64,000 bases of DNA from Verrucomicrobiota bacterium (GCA_037127585.1 JBAXYB010000003.1:3248-67247); one strand, 5' to 3'; numbered from the stretch's first letter, positions 56,555 to 62,313 are shown. Numbers and translations: made by a program. Notes: generated from the letters alone by a model not told the origin.

Positions 56555-56892
56555 TGGCCGACAACATTTTCGCCAAGATCATCGCCAAGCAGATTCCGGC
56601 AACCATCGTGTTCGAGGACGACCGGGTGCTGGCGTTTCGCGACGTCAACCCGCAAGCGCCCGTCCACATTCTCGTCGTCCCGAAACCGGACATTGCCAAT
56701 GTCAGCGCGACCCGGGATGAAGTGATGCTGGGGCACTTGTTGACTGTGGCGGCGGACATTGCCCGCCAAGAGGGGATTGATTCGACAGGCTACCGGCTGG
56801 TCATAAACAAAGGGCGCGATGCCGGCGAGAGTGTTCCCCATTTGCACGTTCATTTGCTTGGCGGACGTTCCCTGAACTGGCCGCCCGGCTGA
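56554..56892 (+). CDS. HIT family (histidine triad) nucleotide-binding protein
   Basis: MADNIFAKII...VPHLHVHLLGG histidine triad. Confidence 0.85.
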   Translation: MADNIFAKIIAKQIPATIVFEDDRVLAFRDVNPQAPVHILVVPKPDIANVSATRDEVMLGHLLTVAADIARQEGIDSTGYRLVINKGRDAGESVPHLHVHLLGGRSLNWPPG

Positions 56893-58373
56893 TGATTCTC
56901 TTCGAAGATAAGCACCTGCTGGTCGTCAACAAACCGTCCGGCATCAATACGCACAAACCGGACAAGTACACGCCCGACGGCTTGCACGAATGGCTGCTCA
57001 AGCGCGGCCATAAACTTTCCATCCTCCACCGGCTCGACAAGGATACCTCGGGTGTTCTCGTGTTTGGCAAGAGCACGTTGGCGAATCAATCTCTCGCCAA
57101 GCAGTTCGAGAAGCACAAAATCAAAAAGGAATACCTTTTCCTCTCCGCGAGCCGGCCGAAGCGGCACCGGTTTTGTGAGGAAGGACCCAATGAGCAGACG
57201 TGGTTCGAGTACGTGTCGCCGGTGGGCGAGAATCATCTCCTCAAAGCCGAACCCGTCACCGGTAAGACGCATCAGATCCGCCGGCACTCGGCGTATTGTA
57301 AGTTTCCGGTCTTGGGCGACACCAAGTACGGTGACATGCCGGCCCCGCGGCTGATGTTGCATGCCCACCGGATTACGTTTACGCATCCGGCCAGTGGTGA
57401 ACTGGTGACGTTTTCGGCGAGCATACCGGCCGTGTTTGAAGATTTGGATGCGTTGACGGCAGCGCGTGAGTTTCGCGAGCTGTTGTTCGATCCGGCGGAG
57501 ACCAATGCGTACCGGCTCGTGAGCGGGGCGGCTGATGGATTGCCGGACGTGATTGTTGATTCGTATGCCGGTCGGTTTTTTGTGCAGCGGTTGTCGGAAA
57601 CAGCCAAACCCCCTCACCTTAATCCTCTCCCCCGGAGGGGAGAGGAGACCGGCGAGGGGGAGTTCTGCGTGTATGATCAACTCGCAACGAAACAGACGCG
57701 CACGCCGGCCCAGTGCATTCAGGGCGCGGCGGTCGCGGAACGGTTCCCGATCCGCGAGAACGGCGTGACTTATCTCATCAACTTCGGCGAAGGCTTGTCG
57801 ACCGGCATCTTTCTCGATCAACGCGAAAATCGCCGGCGACTCTTGAACATGCCGCTGGCCGGTAAGCGGGTGCTAAATTGTTTTTCATACACGTGCGCGT
57901 TCTCCGTTGCGGCGGCGAAGGCGGGGGCGGTGACGACCAGCATTGATCTGTCGCGAAAGTATCTCGACTGGGGGAAGGAAAACTTCCGCGTGAATAATCT
58001 TGATCCTGAGAAACACGATTTCGTTTACGGCGATGTGTTCGAATGGCTCAGGAAGTTCGTGAAGCGTGGCGACCGGTGGGACATGGTGCTGATCGATCCG
58101 CCGACGTTCGCGACGACGAAGAAAGGCCGGGCGTTTCGGGCGGAGCGTGATTACGAGGAACTGGCGGCGTTGGCCATGCCGTTAGTGGTGCCGGGTGGGG
58201 CGCTGTTTTGTTCGACGAATCAGCGGACTTTGTCGCCGGAGAATTTCGAGCGGGCGATTCGGTCGACGGAACGCCAGATTACGGCGCTGGAGTTTGAGAC
58301 GTTGCCTTTTGATTATCGGGTGGCGGAGGGGGAGCACCCGTACTTGAAGACGCTGTGGGCAACCCTGGAATAG
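56892..58373 (+). CDS. fusion of RluA-family pseudouridine synthase and RlmI-like class I SAM rRNA methyltransferase
   Basis: N-terminus: HRLDKDTSGVLVFGKS (RluA catalytic Asp motif). C-terminus: YRLVSGAADGLPDVIVDSYAGRFFVQ and VLNCFSYTCAFS...LIDPPTFA (RlmI/YccW-like). In-frame palindromic insert at 57615-57647 in the linker. Confidence 0.7.
   Translation: MILFEDKHLLVVNKPSGINTHKPDKYTPDGLHEWLLKRGHKLSILHRLDKDTSGVLVFGKSTLANQSLAKQFEKHKIKKEYLFLSASRPKRHRFCEEGPNEQTWFEYVSPVGENHLLKAEPVTGKTHQIRRHSAYCKFPVLGDTKYGDMPAPRLMLHAHRITFTHPASGELVTFSASIPAVFEDLDALTAAREFRELLFDPAETNAYRLVSGAADGLPDVIVDSYAGRFFVQRLSETAKPPHLNPLPRRGEETGEGEFCVYDQLATKQTRTPAQCIQGAAVAERFPIRENGVTYLINFGEGLSTGIFLDQRENRRRLLNMPLAGKRVLNCFSYTCAFSVAAAKAGAVTTSIDLSRKYLDWGKENFRVNNLDPEKHDFVYGDVFEWLRKFVKRGDRWDMVLIDPPTFATTKKGRAFRAERDYEELAALAMPLVVPGGALFCSTNQRTLSPENFERAIRSTERQITALEFETLPFDYRVAEGEHPYLKTLWATLE
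57615..57647 (+). repeat. second copy of the small palindromic element, in-frame in the RluA-RlmI fusion gene
   Basis: CACCTTAATCCTCTCCCCCGGAGGGGAGAGGAG, with a 9-bp stem CCTCTCCCC/GGGGAGAGG. Encodes HLNPLPRRGEE in the same relative frame as the copy at 47167. Confidence 0.6.
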
Positions 58374-60081
58374 ACGCCCACGGAATCTGCGCCAAGAGTG
58401 GTTGCGCGGCCCCGATGCCACCGGCCAGCGCGACGATGTAGGTCAGCGGTTTCCCAATCGGCGAGTACGTGGTCGTCGTTGAAGCCTTGGCGCCTTCCAC
58501 GGTGGTGGAAACATACGGCCCGAGGTGGCGCATGATGGTCTCCGGTTGCGGGAGCTTGTTCCAGGCGATGAAACTGTCGGTGTTGGTGGCAGTGGCGTGC
58601 GCGAGCGTGTAGAGGCCGCCCATGACTTTTCGCAGATCACAGTACGTGAACGATGAGCCTCCGGTCGGAACGCGTTGCGCGACGCTCTTGAACTCGGCGG
58701 AGTCGGCCAGCGACGTCGTGCCGGACTTGATCTGGGTGATGATTTCTTTCGCGTAATCGGGCGTCAACGCGAGGACGAAGTATTTTTCCGTCAACACGTA
58801 CGTCGGCGCAGCGTAACTGCTCCCGGTGCGGATGACGTGCAAGGTTTCGCCGGCATGCGTGATGTCATCGGTGCGCTCGACGGTCTTCTTGATCGTCTCG
58901 ACAATGGTGTCAAACTTTGTGATCGGGTCTTTCACTTCGGCGACCAACGCGAAGTCAGGGGACCGGGCGCCGGATCGCCAATTGCCGATGTAAGCGACTT
59001 CTGGCCCGAGGTGCGTCAGGAAATCGTCACTGAGCCGTACGCCGGCATCGGAGAGATACTTATCGAGGTCGCCGCCGATTTTCAGGGCCGTGGGATTGCC
59101 GGAGCGGGCGAGGGCTTCCATCAACTTCGTGAAGCCGCCGGCCAGATCAGTCGACTGCACGGCGTACAATGCGGAGTCCCCCGGGGCGACGGCCAGCGTG
59201 CTCTGTTGAATCGGCGGGTCAGGTTGGTGGTCTTTGGAGTACGTGATGATGCTGGAGTCCGTGAGGCCGGCGCCATCGAAATTCACGGCGACGGTGGTCG
59301 CTTGAATGTTCCCGAGACTTTCGAGCATCGGACTGCCTTGGGCGGCCATCAGTAGCAGCATGCCGTATTGACTGAAGAGTTGTTCCATGTTGATGAAGGC
59401 GTGGCCCGCGCTGTTCTTTGGTAAGCGCTGGATGGCGTTTTGGAAACGCATGCTGCCGGCCAACGAGACTGCCTCCGGTAACGCATTGCGAGTGAAGCGG
59501 GTAATCATGTCGCGCATCTGCTCCTCGTCAGTCGTGCCGACTAACAGCGTGCCGAGAAATCCATAGCAGAATTGCGCCGCCGGACTGGCATGCACCACCG
59601 TATAGTCAATGCTCAGATAGTTTTTCTTTTCGAGCGTGGCGGCCGGGTTGTACTTCGCCAGTTGGTGCTCATAAACTTTCAGATATGCGAACGCCTGGAC
59701 CTTGTGCAATTTACAATCGATGCCGACGGCCCCGCCGACCTCGGTCTTCGGAGTCGCGGCAAACCGAGTGATGGCGACGAACACTTCGCCTTGCGGCAAG
59801 GCGAGCGCCTCTTCCCAGCGTTCTTTCTTCAATCCGCCTTGCACTGCCGCGAGTGGCTTCTGAAGGAACGCTTGCACCTCCGGCTCGGCCCACAACGCTG
59901 CCAACGGCGTGCCGCGCAACTGCTCCCGGGCGGCCTGAAAATCCGGTGCGTCCACAAACAGGAGAGTGCTCTCCGGTAACAGTTCAGCGCCGGCGGGAGA
60001 ACGTCCACCCCGATTAAAAATTAGGATGGCGGCGGCGACGATCAACGTCAGCGCGATGAAGATGAGTAAAACTTTTTTCAT
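58279..60081 (-). CDS. hypothetical secreted/membrane-anchored protein (DUF3352-like?)
   Basis: MKKVLLIFIALTLIVAAAILIF N-terminal anchor. ~600 aa with a Pro-rich C-terminal tail. Family assignment is tentative. Confidence 0.45.
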   Translation of the reverse strand: MKKVLLIFIALTLIVAAAILIFNRGGRSPAGAELLPESTLLFVDAPDFQAAREQLRGTPLAALWAEPEVQAFLQKPLAAVQGGLKKERWEEALALPQGEVFVAITRFAATPKTEVGGAVGIDCKLHKVQAFAYLKVYEHQLAKYNPAATLEKKNYLSIDYTVVHASPAAQFCYGFLGTLLVGTTDEEQMRDMITRFTRNALPEAVSLAGSMRFQNAIQRLPKNSAGHAFINMEQLFSQYGMLLLMAAQGSPMLESLGNIQATTVAVNFDGAGLTDSSIITYSKDHQPDPPIQQSTLAVAPGDSALYAVQSTDLAGGFTKLMEALARSGNPTALKIGGDLDKYLSDAGVRLSDDFLTHLGPEVAYIGNWRSGARSPDFALVAEVKDPITKFDTIVETIKKTVERTDDITHAGETLHVIRTGSSYAAPTYVLTEKYFVLALTPDYAKEIITQIKSGTTSLADSAEFKSVAQRVPTGGSSFTYCDLRKVMGGLYTLAHATATNTDSFIAWNKLPQPETIMRHLGPYVSTTVEGAKASTTTTYSPIGKPLTYIVALAGGIGAAQPLLAQIPWASIPGLPTASSSTGAPPPPPDNQKATSQTPAP

Positions 60082-60116
60082 GAGCGCGCGGATGCTATGC
60101 GTCGAACGGGAGGGCG

Positions 60117-60527
60117 TCAAGCTTGCGGCGGGATCGGCGAATGGGTGCCGCGGGTTCGCCAGTAGTATTCGAGGCCCACACTCATGCCGTTTCGATGGGG
60201 CAATGTGAAAATGAAGCCACTGATCAGAGCGCCGACCAACCCATAGAACCAGACTGAATACGGATTATAGACGCGAAAATAGATGATCACGATCAATGGG
60301 AAAATAAACAGTGCGCGGTCGATCAATAGCAAATAAGCCCAGAGATCGCCTTGGTTCTGGAGATATTGCAGGTCGCACGCAGGACACCGGTCATGCAATG
60401 TGATCCACTTCTTGAACAATGCGCCGGCACCACACCGTGGGCATTTCCGCTGCGCCCCACGCCAGAGTACCGACTTTAATGTTGGATGCGTGTCCTGCAC
60501 TCGCCAATTGTAACATGGTTGCCCCAT
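60117..60527 (-). CDS. DUF983 family membrane protein
   Basis: CPRCGAGALF...CPACDLQY zinc-ribbon followed by two TM helices, the DUF983 architecture. Confidence 0.65.
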   Translation of the reverse strand: MGQPCYNWRVQDTHPTLKSVLWRGAQRKCPRCGAGALFKKWITLHDRCPACDLQYLQNQGDLWAYLLLIDRALFIFPLIVIIYFRVYNPYSVWFYGLVGALISGFIFTLPHRNGMSVGLEYYWRTRGTHSPIPPQA

Positions 60528-60618: not shown

Positions 60619-61368
60619 TTACTTCCCGTTGCCGTGCCCATGGCCATTGCCGTTGCCATTACCATTCCCCTGGCCGCCTTGACCCTTTTTGCCTTTGGAA
60701 TGGGGCACGAGAACCGCCACCGATTTGGACGATGAGTTGCCGCTCGCATCCGTGCTGGTAATCGTGATCGTGTAGATGCGGCCATTGCCGGGACCTGCCC
60801 GTTCCGCGCGCAACAAGACCTTGTGATCATTGAGCACTTCCCAATCGGGGCTGAAGTTGCCATCGCCAATGCTGTCCACCGACTCGTCACTTTAGATGCT
60901 CAAGGTCGTCGTCGTCTCGCCGTCACAATTATCAACGATGTCGTAGTTCACGGTGACCGGCACCATCTTATGGTTGGGCGGCCACAAGAGCGACTTGCTG
61001 AGGTTGACGTTCGTGATCGCTGGCGCTTCCGCGTCGACAACCGTGATGGTGAAGATGCAGGAGGTGGTATTGGTATTCGCATCGGTAACGGTGCAGAGCA
61101 CGGTATTAGTTCCGACTGGGAAGGTTGCGCCGGAAGCTGGAACCGTCGTCACAGTAATCGGCAATGCTGCGCCGGTCACAATGGGCGCGGAGTAGGCAAC
61201 GCTGGCCGAGCAGACGCCGGGATCATTTGACACCGTAATGTCCGCGGGGCAAGTAATGGCCAGTTGGGCAAAGACCGGAGAAGCAATTCCCGCCAGAATT
61301 GTCAGCAGGACGGTGGCGACAAATTGCCTGACTGTTGGTTTACAGGACTCGATAGTTACTGAACGCAT
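60619..61368 (-). pseudogene. HYR-domain surface protein interrupted by a single in-frame TAA (60892-60894); downstream 60619-60891 continues in the same frame
   Basis: The two ORF-track entries (60892-61368 and 60619-60879) are in the same frame, separated only by one TAA. The downstream part encodes a beta-rich domain and a G/N/H-rich tail. Confidence 0.4.
60892..61368 (-). CDS. secreted HYR (hyalin repeat) domain protein, N-terminal segment ending at in-frame TAA
   Basis: Signal peptide, then CPADITVSNDPGVCSASVAYSAPIVTGAA...TFPVGTNTVLCTVTDANTNTTSCIFTITVVD, an HYR domain. Confidence 0.65.
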   Translation of the reverse strand: MRSVTIESCKPTVRQFVATVLLTILAGIASPVFAQLAITCPADITVSNDPGVCSASVAYSAPIVTGAALPITVTTVPASGATFPVGTNTVLCTVTDANTNTTSCIFTITVVDAEAPAITNVNLSKSLLWPPNHKMVPVTVNYDIVDNCDGETTTTLSI

Positions 61369-61557
61369 AGTGAGAACCTCCGTGTGTACTGATTGTTATG
61401 TTTTGAGTGACTACGCCGCGAGGCGGAGTCCTTGCACGGTTGGTTTGTAGGCCATTGCCGACGACTTGTCAACCTTGTAATCCATATAATATAAGGCCTG
61501 CAAGTCAGTCAAACGCCGGTTGCCAAAGCGGGCCAGATGCGGTAGTTACCTTGCCAA

Positions 61558-62313
61558 ATGACCAGCTTCAAGCATTTTACTTTCGTTCTCCTGGCTTGGG
61601 TCGGGGCTGCCCAGGCGCAAATGGGACCGTGCGCGTCGCCCAACGGCCCGCTCTTACCGGATCTAATCGTCGACAAGCGCGCGCTGCGGACGGACCGCTC
61701 GATCACGCAGGAATACATCGCGGCTGATAGTTGTCAGATTATCGAGGGTTGCGTCACGATCTCTGGTTTCCGGCGCTTGCTCCGGTTCACAACCACGACG
61801 CCCAACATCGGTACCACTGCGCTCGTCATTGGCGCGCCAGCGGAATGCTCCCTGTTGTTTCATTTCAGCGAATGCCACGGCCATTACCATCTGGAAGAAT
61901 ACGCGGACTACCGGCTCTGGACTAAGACCGGCTTCCGGATATGGCGACAGCATCGCGACTGGTCCGTACCGGCCTCGGCATCGACCAACCAACTCCTCCT
62001 CGCCACGTTGAGCGATGCCGGCGAGTTGATTACTGGACGTAAGCAAGGCTTCTGCATGCTTGACTCCACGCCGTACATAAAATCGCCGGTGCCGCCGGGT
62101 TTTCATGACTGCATTTCGAATCAAGGCATCAGCGCTGGTTGGGCGGACGTTTACGACAAAGGGCTGGATTGCCAGTTCATTGACGTGACCGGCCTGGCGC
62201 CCGGCCGCTACACGTTGGAGATCGAGGTTAACTCTGACCGGGTTTTACCGGAGAGTGATTACCGGAACAACAGCACCAGCGTGGCGGTTAAGATTCCGCC
62301 CGTGGCGAATTAA
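61558..62313 (+). CDS. secreted lysyl oxidase (LOX) catalytic-domain homologue
   Basis: Signal peptide MTSFKHFTFVLLAWVGAAQA. Copper-binding His motif FHFSECHGHYH (vs WEWHSCHQHYH in animal LOX). KQGFCMLD (LTQ Lys) and ADVYD (LTQ Tyr). C-terminal GLDCQFIDVTGLAPGRYTLEIEVNSDRVLPESDYRNN aligns almost residue-by-residue with human LOX. Confidence 0.8.
   Translation: MTSFKHFTFVLLAWVGAAQAQMGPCASPNGPLLPDLIVDKRALRTDRSITQEYIAADSCQIIEGCVTISGFRRLLRFTTTTPNIGTTALVIGAPAECSLLFHFSECHGHYHLEEYADYRLWTKTGFRIWRQHRDWSVPASASTNQLLLATLSDAGELITGRKQGFCMLDSTPYIKSPVPPGFHDCISNQGISAGWADVYDKGLDCQFIDVTGLAPGRYTLEIEVNSDRVLPESDYRNNSTSVAVKIPPVAN

Follow-up and report, generated by a model that had tools for sequence, protein, structure and literature searches.

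Sequence and profile comparisons confirm that the gene at positions 61558-62313 (+ strand) of the verrucomicrobial DNA analysed here (a stretch of 64,000 nucleotides, hereafter the window) encodes a predicted exported bacterial relative of the animal lysyl oxidases (LOX) in which all of the catalytic residues are present. By analogy with the characterised members of the family, the protein can be regarded, with a probability of roughly 0.85, as a minimal, chromosomally encoded copper/lysine tyrosylquinone (LTQ) amine oxidase consisting of a signal peptide and a catalytic domain, for which a broad specificity would be likelier than a function as a matrix cross-linker. Within a large family for which annotation already exists, the gene is an ordinary member that is somewhat under-reported in taxonomic terms.

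Gene model, family assignment and active site

On the + strand, the open reading frame (ORF) extends from an ATG at 61558 to a TAA stop codon at 62311-62313 and codes for 251 amino acids including the signal peptide, exactly as given in the initial annotation according to both the ORF list and the sequence; all of the motifs quoted there were also found (FHFSECHGHYH at residue 101, GRKQGFCMLD at 160, WADVYD at 195, GLDCQFIDVTG at 202 and LPESDYRNN at 230). In public gene calls (ENA, Logan), the identical protein (P0001, 230 amino acids) begins at M22, so that the signal peptide is lost. The N-termini of the homologues have the same hydrophobic stretch ending in A-x-A, followed by a conserved Q(L/M)GPC, which argues that the upstream ATG at 61558 is the correct start. 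An antisense ORF of 153 amino acids (61663-62124, - strand) is not a gene, as it clusters across 74 loci only as a shadow of the conserved LOX sequence. Upstream of the start, the intergenic region that separates the gene from a divergently oriented gene on the - strand (61369-61557) is presumed, from its position, to contain the promoter. A scan for the sigma-70 consensus around the LOX gene, which does not cover verrucomicrobial promoter types, returned no promoter-like site, and the terminator-like sites around the gene occur at chance level and within coding sequence, and are thus uninformative.

Residues 1-20 (MTSFKHFTFVLLAWVGAAQA; 61558-61617, + strand) form, by inspection of the sequence, a Sec-type signal peptide with the n/h/c layout that is common to the homologues, that is, Lys5, a hydrophobic core and an A-Q-A end, after which cleavage is predicted. 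In the AlphaFold2 (AF2) model, this segment has a pLDDT of 64-66 and contains a lone helix (residues 4-13). The presence of this export signal supports the proposal that the protein is secreted, and its most likely location would be either the periplasm or the exterior of the cell. The signal peptide is followed by a single catalytic domain that begins about ten residues past the cleavage site, with neither a propeptide nor accessory domains.

The assignment of the protein as a lysyl oxidase family member is borne out by four lines of evidence, namely Pfam, a sequence search of the PDB, the AF2 fold and the conservation of residues. A search with the Pfam profile PF01186 (Lysyl_oxidase), which the initial annotation had named as a check, gave a significant match (E = 3.2e-26; 92.6 bits versus a gathering score of 20.4), and phmmer against the PDB returned human LOXL2 (5ze3) as the sole match (E = 4e-13). 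The AF2 model, computed from an alignment of 64 sequences, has a mean pLDDT of 93.8 and a pTM of 0.88, with low scores confined to residues 1-20 and the last few positions. When this model was compared with the PDB by Foldseek, the only matches at E <= 0.001 were chains A and B of 5ZE3 (E = 6e-13; TM 0.62-0.64 by query length, over 230 columns with 22-23% identity, for a predicted versus a solved structure). Other amine oxidases with quinone cofactors were also considered and rejected: the Pfam scan at E <= 0.01 yielded Lysyl_oxidase only, with no profile of TPQ copper amine oxidases or of LodA/GoxA-type CTQ lysine oxidases, no NCBIfam model matched the protein, and the sequence and fold searches of the PDB led only to LOXL2. 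The alignment over the whole length that had been described holds once two parts are set aside, namely the 20-residue signal peptide and an insert of 28 residues that lies between the third copper histidine and the cofactor lysine, but not otherwise, and HMMER accordingly reports two stretches.

The catalytic residues were evaluated by alignment to LOXL2 and to 64 homologues with 41-70% identity to the query. Adding 317 to the chain index of 5ZE3 yields the UniProt numbering of LOXL2, as confirmed by the known K653 and Y689, which then coincide with the lysine in GHKASFC and the tyrosine in CWDMY, respectively; the numbering of cysteines and ligands is that of the 5ZE3 paper and agrees with this offset. 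The copper-site motif C106-H107-G-H109-Y-H111 (61873-61890, + strand) aligns with C625, H626, H628 and H630 of LOXL2, so that H107, H109 and H111 match the copper ligands of LOXL2 (H292, H294 and H296 in LOX). The predicted LTQ lysine K162 (codon 62041-62043, + strand) and the predicted LTQ tyrosine Y199 (codon 62152-62154, + strand) align with K653 and Y689 of LOXL2, which correspond to K320 and Y355 of LOX. All five of these residues are invariant in the 64 homologues, as are C59, C106, C166, C185 and D197, the latter located two residues before Y199. The copper histidines and the Lys/Tyr pair that had been proposed from the sequence are thus present on a proper alignment. The position of the first "copper-talon" His of animal LOX (H289) is occupied by Ser104; this histidine is reported to be missing in bacterial LOX and not to be needed for either copper binding or activity (PMC4448552).

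Among the cysteines, C106, C166, C185 and C205 align with C625, C657, C673 and C695 of LOXL2, and C59 and C65 are spaced by six residues, as are C573 and C579 of LOXL2. C65 and C205 are both present in 52 of the aligned homologues and both absent in seven, a pattern of co-presence and co-loss that is as expected for a disulfide pair. From these sequence patterns, we infer that the eight cysteines would form four disulfides, three of which would match LOXL2, while the fourth, C25-C97, would be specific to this prokaryotic group. The C-terminal block had been described as nearly identical in pattern to that of human LOX. The skeleton DCQ..D.T...PG.Y...N...ESDY.NN is indeed common to the protein and LOXL2, but with 16 of 37 positions shared, "nearly identical" is too strong.

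A departure from the animal enzymes is a helical region at residues ~123-157 (61924-62028, + strand), which contains a net insert of 28 residues between the copper strand and the cofactor lysine, as judged from the spacing in LOXL2 and from the AF2 model. The distance from the third histidine to the cofactor lysine is 51 residues, compared with 23 in LOXL2, and the model places helices at residues 123-132 and 142-153. Within the insert, G125, W129 and R133 are invariant in the 64-homologue alignment, as is W121 just ahead of it. Among 90 relatives with recognisable motifs, the spacing is 46-51 residues in 50 and has the animal-like value of 21-23 in 39, and the long-spacing class includes Halobacteriales archaea. 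Therefore, the insert is characteristic of a sizeable subclass of the prokaryotic enzymes and does not set this gene apart. It might further be speculated that the insert-bearing prokaryotic enzymes are a functionally distinct subfamily in which the insert gates the active site and sets a range of non-protein substrates, and that the protein of this verrucomicrobial lineage may be a periplasmic oxidase of amines or antibiotics that acts together with the abutting RND efflux pump and is not a cross-linker; we consider this combination improbable.

Proposed function and the neighbouring genes

The steps by which the protein would act can be derived from the established chemistry of the LOX family. 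The Sec system would export the protein and signal peptidase I would cut it after AQA, whereupon the eight cysteines would pair into four disulfides in the oxidising periplasm. Cu(II) would be bound by H107, H109 and H111, and copper and O2 would oxidise Y199, to which K162 would add, so that lysine tyrosylquinone would be formed autocatalytically. The mature enzyme would then convert primary amines, either peptidyl lysine or small amines, to aldehydes by oxidative deamination, with formation of NH3 and H2O2. As a broad-specificity amine oxidase, it might serve, either in the periplasm or extracellularly, in nitrogen scavenging or in the detoxification of amines. Copper binding, cofactor formation, activity and the final location of the protein are all expected by analogy with the family. 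A broad-specificity oxidase is regarded as likelier than a dedicated cross-linker because the characterised archaeal relative has a relaxed specificity and because no neighbouring gene is conserved.

The latter point follows from a search for partners in which the six-frame ORFs of 90 LOX loci and the window were compared all against all with BLASTP and clustered. Leaving aside LOX and the shadow ORFs, no family was present in more than 8-9 of the 91 loci, and the families that reached this number are lineage-specific synteny blocks.

The initial annotation had suggested that the enzyme cross-links surface or secreted proteins, on the grounds that an HYR-domain gene lies next to it and that both are typical of the eukaryotic extracellular matrix. 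In its full form, this proposal would make the enzyme and the adjacent HYR protein a bacterial analogue of extracellular-matrix maturation. There are several points that fit: the LOX protein is predicted from its sequence to be exported, animal LOX acts on peptidyl lysine, the characterised archaeal enzyme deaminates lysine-containing polypeptides, and the HYR family protein is itself secreted and, when read through its stop codon, has a Lys/Gly-rich tail. The HYR domain is indeed present, in an ORF directly beside the LOX gene (60892-61368, - strand), but it is encoded on the opposite strand, divergently from LOX, and the gene as a whole (60619-61368, - strand) is interrupted after codon 158 by an in-frame TAA (60892-60894), which cuts the protein at codon 159, ahead of the Lys-rich tail. 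The 91 codons past this stop (60619-60891) are still well conserved in comparison with the homologues; intact homologues are about 255 amino acids long, have T, D or A at the site of the stop and end in a Gly/Asn/His-rich tail. Because the downstream codons still align with these intact homologues, the TAA is to be read as a nonsense mutation of recent origin, as a polymorphism or as an error of the assembly. It should also be mentioned that two cysteines conserved in the HYR homologues (in CTLSV and ITCTD) are both substituted in the protein of the window (TTLSI and ITSTD).

The HYR gene is also not a conserved partner. A homologue adjoins LOX only in the two public contigs that are identical to the window (L002 and L003), and in none of 86 loci from other organisms. 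At the corresponding site, the closest relative with a long contig (L001) has two unrelated genes, and two more distant verrucomicrobial genomes (L004 and L006) have a gene for a protein of 345 amino acids. Collagen-like substrates are also lacking, in that no frame of the window contains a run of six or more Gly-X-Y repeats. The eukaryotic flavour of the HYR domain carries no weight either, as HYR domains are common in bacteria (859 matches at E <= 1e-5). Thus, a role in the cross-linking of surface or secreted proteins is unsupported speculation, since LOX is not rare in bacteria, has not been transferred recently (see below) and does not have HYR as a conserved partner, and we regard this reading as unlikely.

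Several other genes were observed in the vicinity of LOX in related genomes. In three loci (L004 4967-6004, L005 3824-4861 and L006 4961-6004), the start of LOX is overlapped by 4 bp by the gene for a protein of 345-347 amino acids, which suggests that the two genes form an operon. This protein has no Pfam match; its NDSGGALF motif recalls the active site of S1 serine proteases, but the match to chymotrypsinogen reached only E = 0.41. More generally, the proteins encoded upstream of LOX in relatives (345 amino acids in L004, 245 and 234 in L001, and 306 in L017) gave nothing significant in Pfam or the PDB. Downstream, the same three loci contain a gene with Radical_SAM and LAM_C domains (lysine-2,3-aminomutase-like) and a gene with a weak ATP-grasp match. 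In one Blastocatellia and two Betaproteobacteria genomes (three species), a gene of the di-haem CCP_MauG family is located 0.4-3 kb from LOX (L009/L010 4206-5651, L070 1959-3800 and L072 2025-3866). In methylamine dehydrogenase, it is another quinone cofactor, TTQ, that is matured by MauG, and therefore it is conceivable, by analogy, that these proteins take part in the maturation of the LOX cofactor or in the removal of peroxide, although a recurrence in three species is small.

Abundance and inheritance

The initial annotation had further held that LOX genes are sporadic in bacteria and usually attributed to horizontal transfer. The first part of this statement is contradicted by the abundance of the family. 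A word-indexed search yielded 315 homologues, and PF01186 was found in all of the 120 that were listed; several of them, from Blastocatellia, Pyrinomonadaceae, Acidobacteriota and Thermoplasmatota, bear the NCBI name "lysyl oxidase family protein". When 1.84 billion cluster representatives (50% identity) were searched exhaustively with HMMER, there were 3,792 matches at E <= 1e-3, 1,610 at E <= 1e-10 and 400 at E <= 1e-30. In a set of species-representative genomes, a relative is encoded in 313 stretches from at least eight bacterial or archaeal lineages, according to the record titles, and the best 80 of these 313 come from Verrucomicrobiia, Acidobacteriota, Burkholderiales, Myxococcota, Binatia, Bacteroidota, Actinomycetota, Planctomycetota, Thermoplasmatota and Halobacteriales. 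With 313 genome stretches, about 3,800 clusters at 50% identity and a publication on the subject dating from 2015 (PMC4448552), LOX cannot be called sporadic in bacteria.

With respect to horizontal transfer, the gene might be a recent acquisition from a eukaryote or a distant donor that has not been integrated into the biology of its host. The family is patchy across phyla, the literature invokes several transfers between domains, and there is a single verrucomicrobial species representative among the best 80 of the 313 loci. Nevertheless, the local evidence points in the opposite direction. The GC content of the gene (58.2%) is typical of the window (58.7%). The window is 100% identical to L002 and L003, and, among the other organisms for which a long contig is recorded, the closest LOX, that of a Verrucomicrobiia metagenome-assembled genome (MAG; L001), is located at the same site, between a DUF983 gene and an efflux cluster (OEP / ACR_tran / MFP / TetR). 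In both, the LOX and OEP (outer-membrane efflux) genes converge, and their stop codons overlap in a palindromic TTAA (62310-62313 in the window, 8741-8744 in L001). In L004 and L006, the upstream synteny is retained (NrdR, HIT, a fusion of RluD and a methyltransferase, and DUF3352), so that the position of LOX, downstream of the fusion and DUF3352 genes, is kept in three other verrucomicrobial genomes (L001, L004 and L006). The identities of LOX to its counterparts in L001, L004 and L006 are 71.4, 60.0 and 59.2%, and those of the flanking genes in the same three genomes are 80.0, 64.9 and 66.6% for the RluD-methyltransferase fusion and 64.5, 41.9 and 43.6% for DUF3352, and thus the divergence of LOX matches that of its neighbours. 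In addition, the nearest relatives are all prokaryotic and have the features of the prokaryotic type, namely the absence of the first talon His and the presence of the insert; no relative was found in phages, and the only one on a plasmid is carried by a 1.1-Mb megaplasmid of Gemmatirosa.

The conserved site, the divergence that tracks the neighbours and the typical GC content together form, at the level of sequence, the pattern of a gene that has been inherited vertically at a stable locus within the verrucomicrobial lineage and has not been transferred recently. A recent acquisition is therefore very unlikely, although LOX may have entered the lineage by an ancient transfer. Verrucomicrobiota are thus added to the phyla in which LOX is maintained vertically, which has a modest bearing on the debate about a bacterial origin of animal LOX.

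As an aside, the fused gene of the upstream synteny block (PseudoU_synth_2 and a SAM-dependent methyltransferase, 493 amino acids, 56892-58373, + strand) converges on the DUF3352 gene (58279-60120, - strand), and the two ORFs overlap by about 95 bp, an arrangement that is kept in all four related verrucomicrobial genomes.

The proximity of the efflux cluster raises the question of whether the enzyme inactivates amine-bearing antibiotics such as aminoglycosides and polymyxins, in association with the RND efflux system next to it (OEP / ACR_tran / MFP), which is under TetR regulation. The characterised archaeal enzyme, HTU-LOX, oxidises several aminoglycosides and polymyxin (PMC6452851), and the convergent 4-bp overlap of LOX and OEP is kept in the 71% identical L001, with the TetR gene past the pump. 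However, genes that converge are not co-transcribed, no pump adjoins LOX in L004, L006 or any other lineage, and a neighbourhood shared by two close relatives amounts to no more than ordinary synteny; moreover, the authors of the HTU-LOX study hold a role in resistance unlikely in their own organism (PMC6452851). A function in antibiotic inactivation is thus highly doubtful here. Lastly, the view that the gene encodes a catalytically dead protein with a LOX fold, or that it is decaying, could appeal to the undetectable native activity of the archaeal homologue in its cells, but it is scarcely credible in light of an intact ORF, a confident AF2 model and catalytic residues that, like the cysteines C59, C106, C166 and C185, are invariant in 64 homologues of 41-70% identity.

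To our knowledge, no structure of a prokaryotic LOX has been solved. A compact mature enzyme of 231 residues that has no propeptide and is modelled with high confidence could be well suited to studies of LTQ biogenesis or to biocatalysis.

Comparison with known lysyl oxidases

Compared with human LOXL2 (5ZE3) and other animal LOX, the protein has the same predicted fold, the same Cys-His-x-His-x-His copper motif and the same positions of the LTQ lysine and tyrosine. Three of the five disulfides of the catalytic domain of LOXL2 would be matched, and the C-terminal skeleton is shared. In contrast, the C663-C685 and C732-C746 disulfides of LOXL2 have no counterpart, and the C25-C97 pair would be extra. 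The identity is only 22-23%, SRCR domains and a propeptide are absent, and the protein differs from animal LOX by the serine in place of the first talon His and by the 28-residue, two-helix insert.

That bacteria and archaea possess LOX has been on record since 2015 (Grau-Bove et al., PMC4448552). The bacterial proteins described there likewise consist of a LOX domain and a signal peptide, with the three histidines that are essential and the LTQ residues present and the first histidine missing. Verrucomicrobiota and Acidobacteriota, to which the protein of the window and its nearest relatives belong, are not mentioned in the main text of that paper (PMC4448552); their LOX genes widen the taxonomic range and do not define a new kind of enzyme. 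A phrase search of the literature for the function of bacterial LOX led to this 2015 survey, and the remaining results concerned lipoxygenases, which are also abbreviated "LOX", or eukaryotic, mostly animal, lysyl oxidases.

Two observations on the relatives touch on the domain architecture of the family. Many long relatives of 480-1,570 amino acids (P0123-P0125, P0134, P0210 and others) match the query in four to six stretches, a sequence pattern that suggests tandem LOX domains, and others have long N-terminal extensions, for example, proteins of 811 amino acids in Chitinophaga (L079 4119-6554) and 492 amino acids in a member of the Bacteroidota (L046 4098-5576). Therefore, prokaryotic LOX appear to come in a wider range of architectures than the "simple" one described in 2015.

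A functional comparison is offered by HTU-LOX of the haloarchaeon H. turkmenica, the only prokaryotic relative that has been characterised. This enzyme depends on copper and can be refolded with Cu2+ to an active form that is sensitive to 3-aminopropionitrile and has a broad amine specificity (PMC6452851); it also deaminates lysine-containing polypeptides (PMC6452851). Native amine oxidase activity was not detected in H. turkmenica, and the role of the enzyme was termed cryptic (PMC6452851). Like the verrucomicrobial protein, HTU-LOX consists of one LOX domain preceded by a hydrophobic signal at the N-terminus. It differs in that about 55 inhibitory residues (A39-Q92) precede the catalytic domain, for which the verrucomicrobial protein has no equivalent, and in its host, a haloarchaeon rather than a diderm bacterium. 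Relatives encoded in Halobacteriales MAGs, taken as stand-ins for HTU-LOX, are 42-45% identical to residues 24-246 of the verrucomicrobial protein and fall into its long-spacing, insert-bearing class. By analogy, it is expected that the two enzymes would have copper dependence, sensitivity to 3-aminopropionitrile and a broad amine specificity in common.
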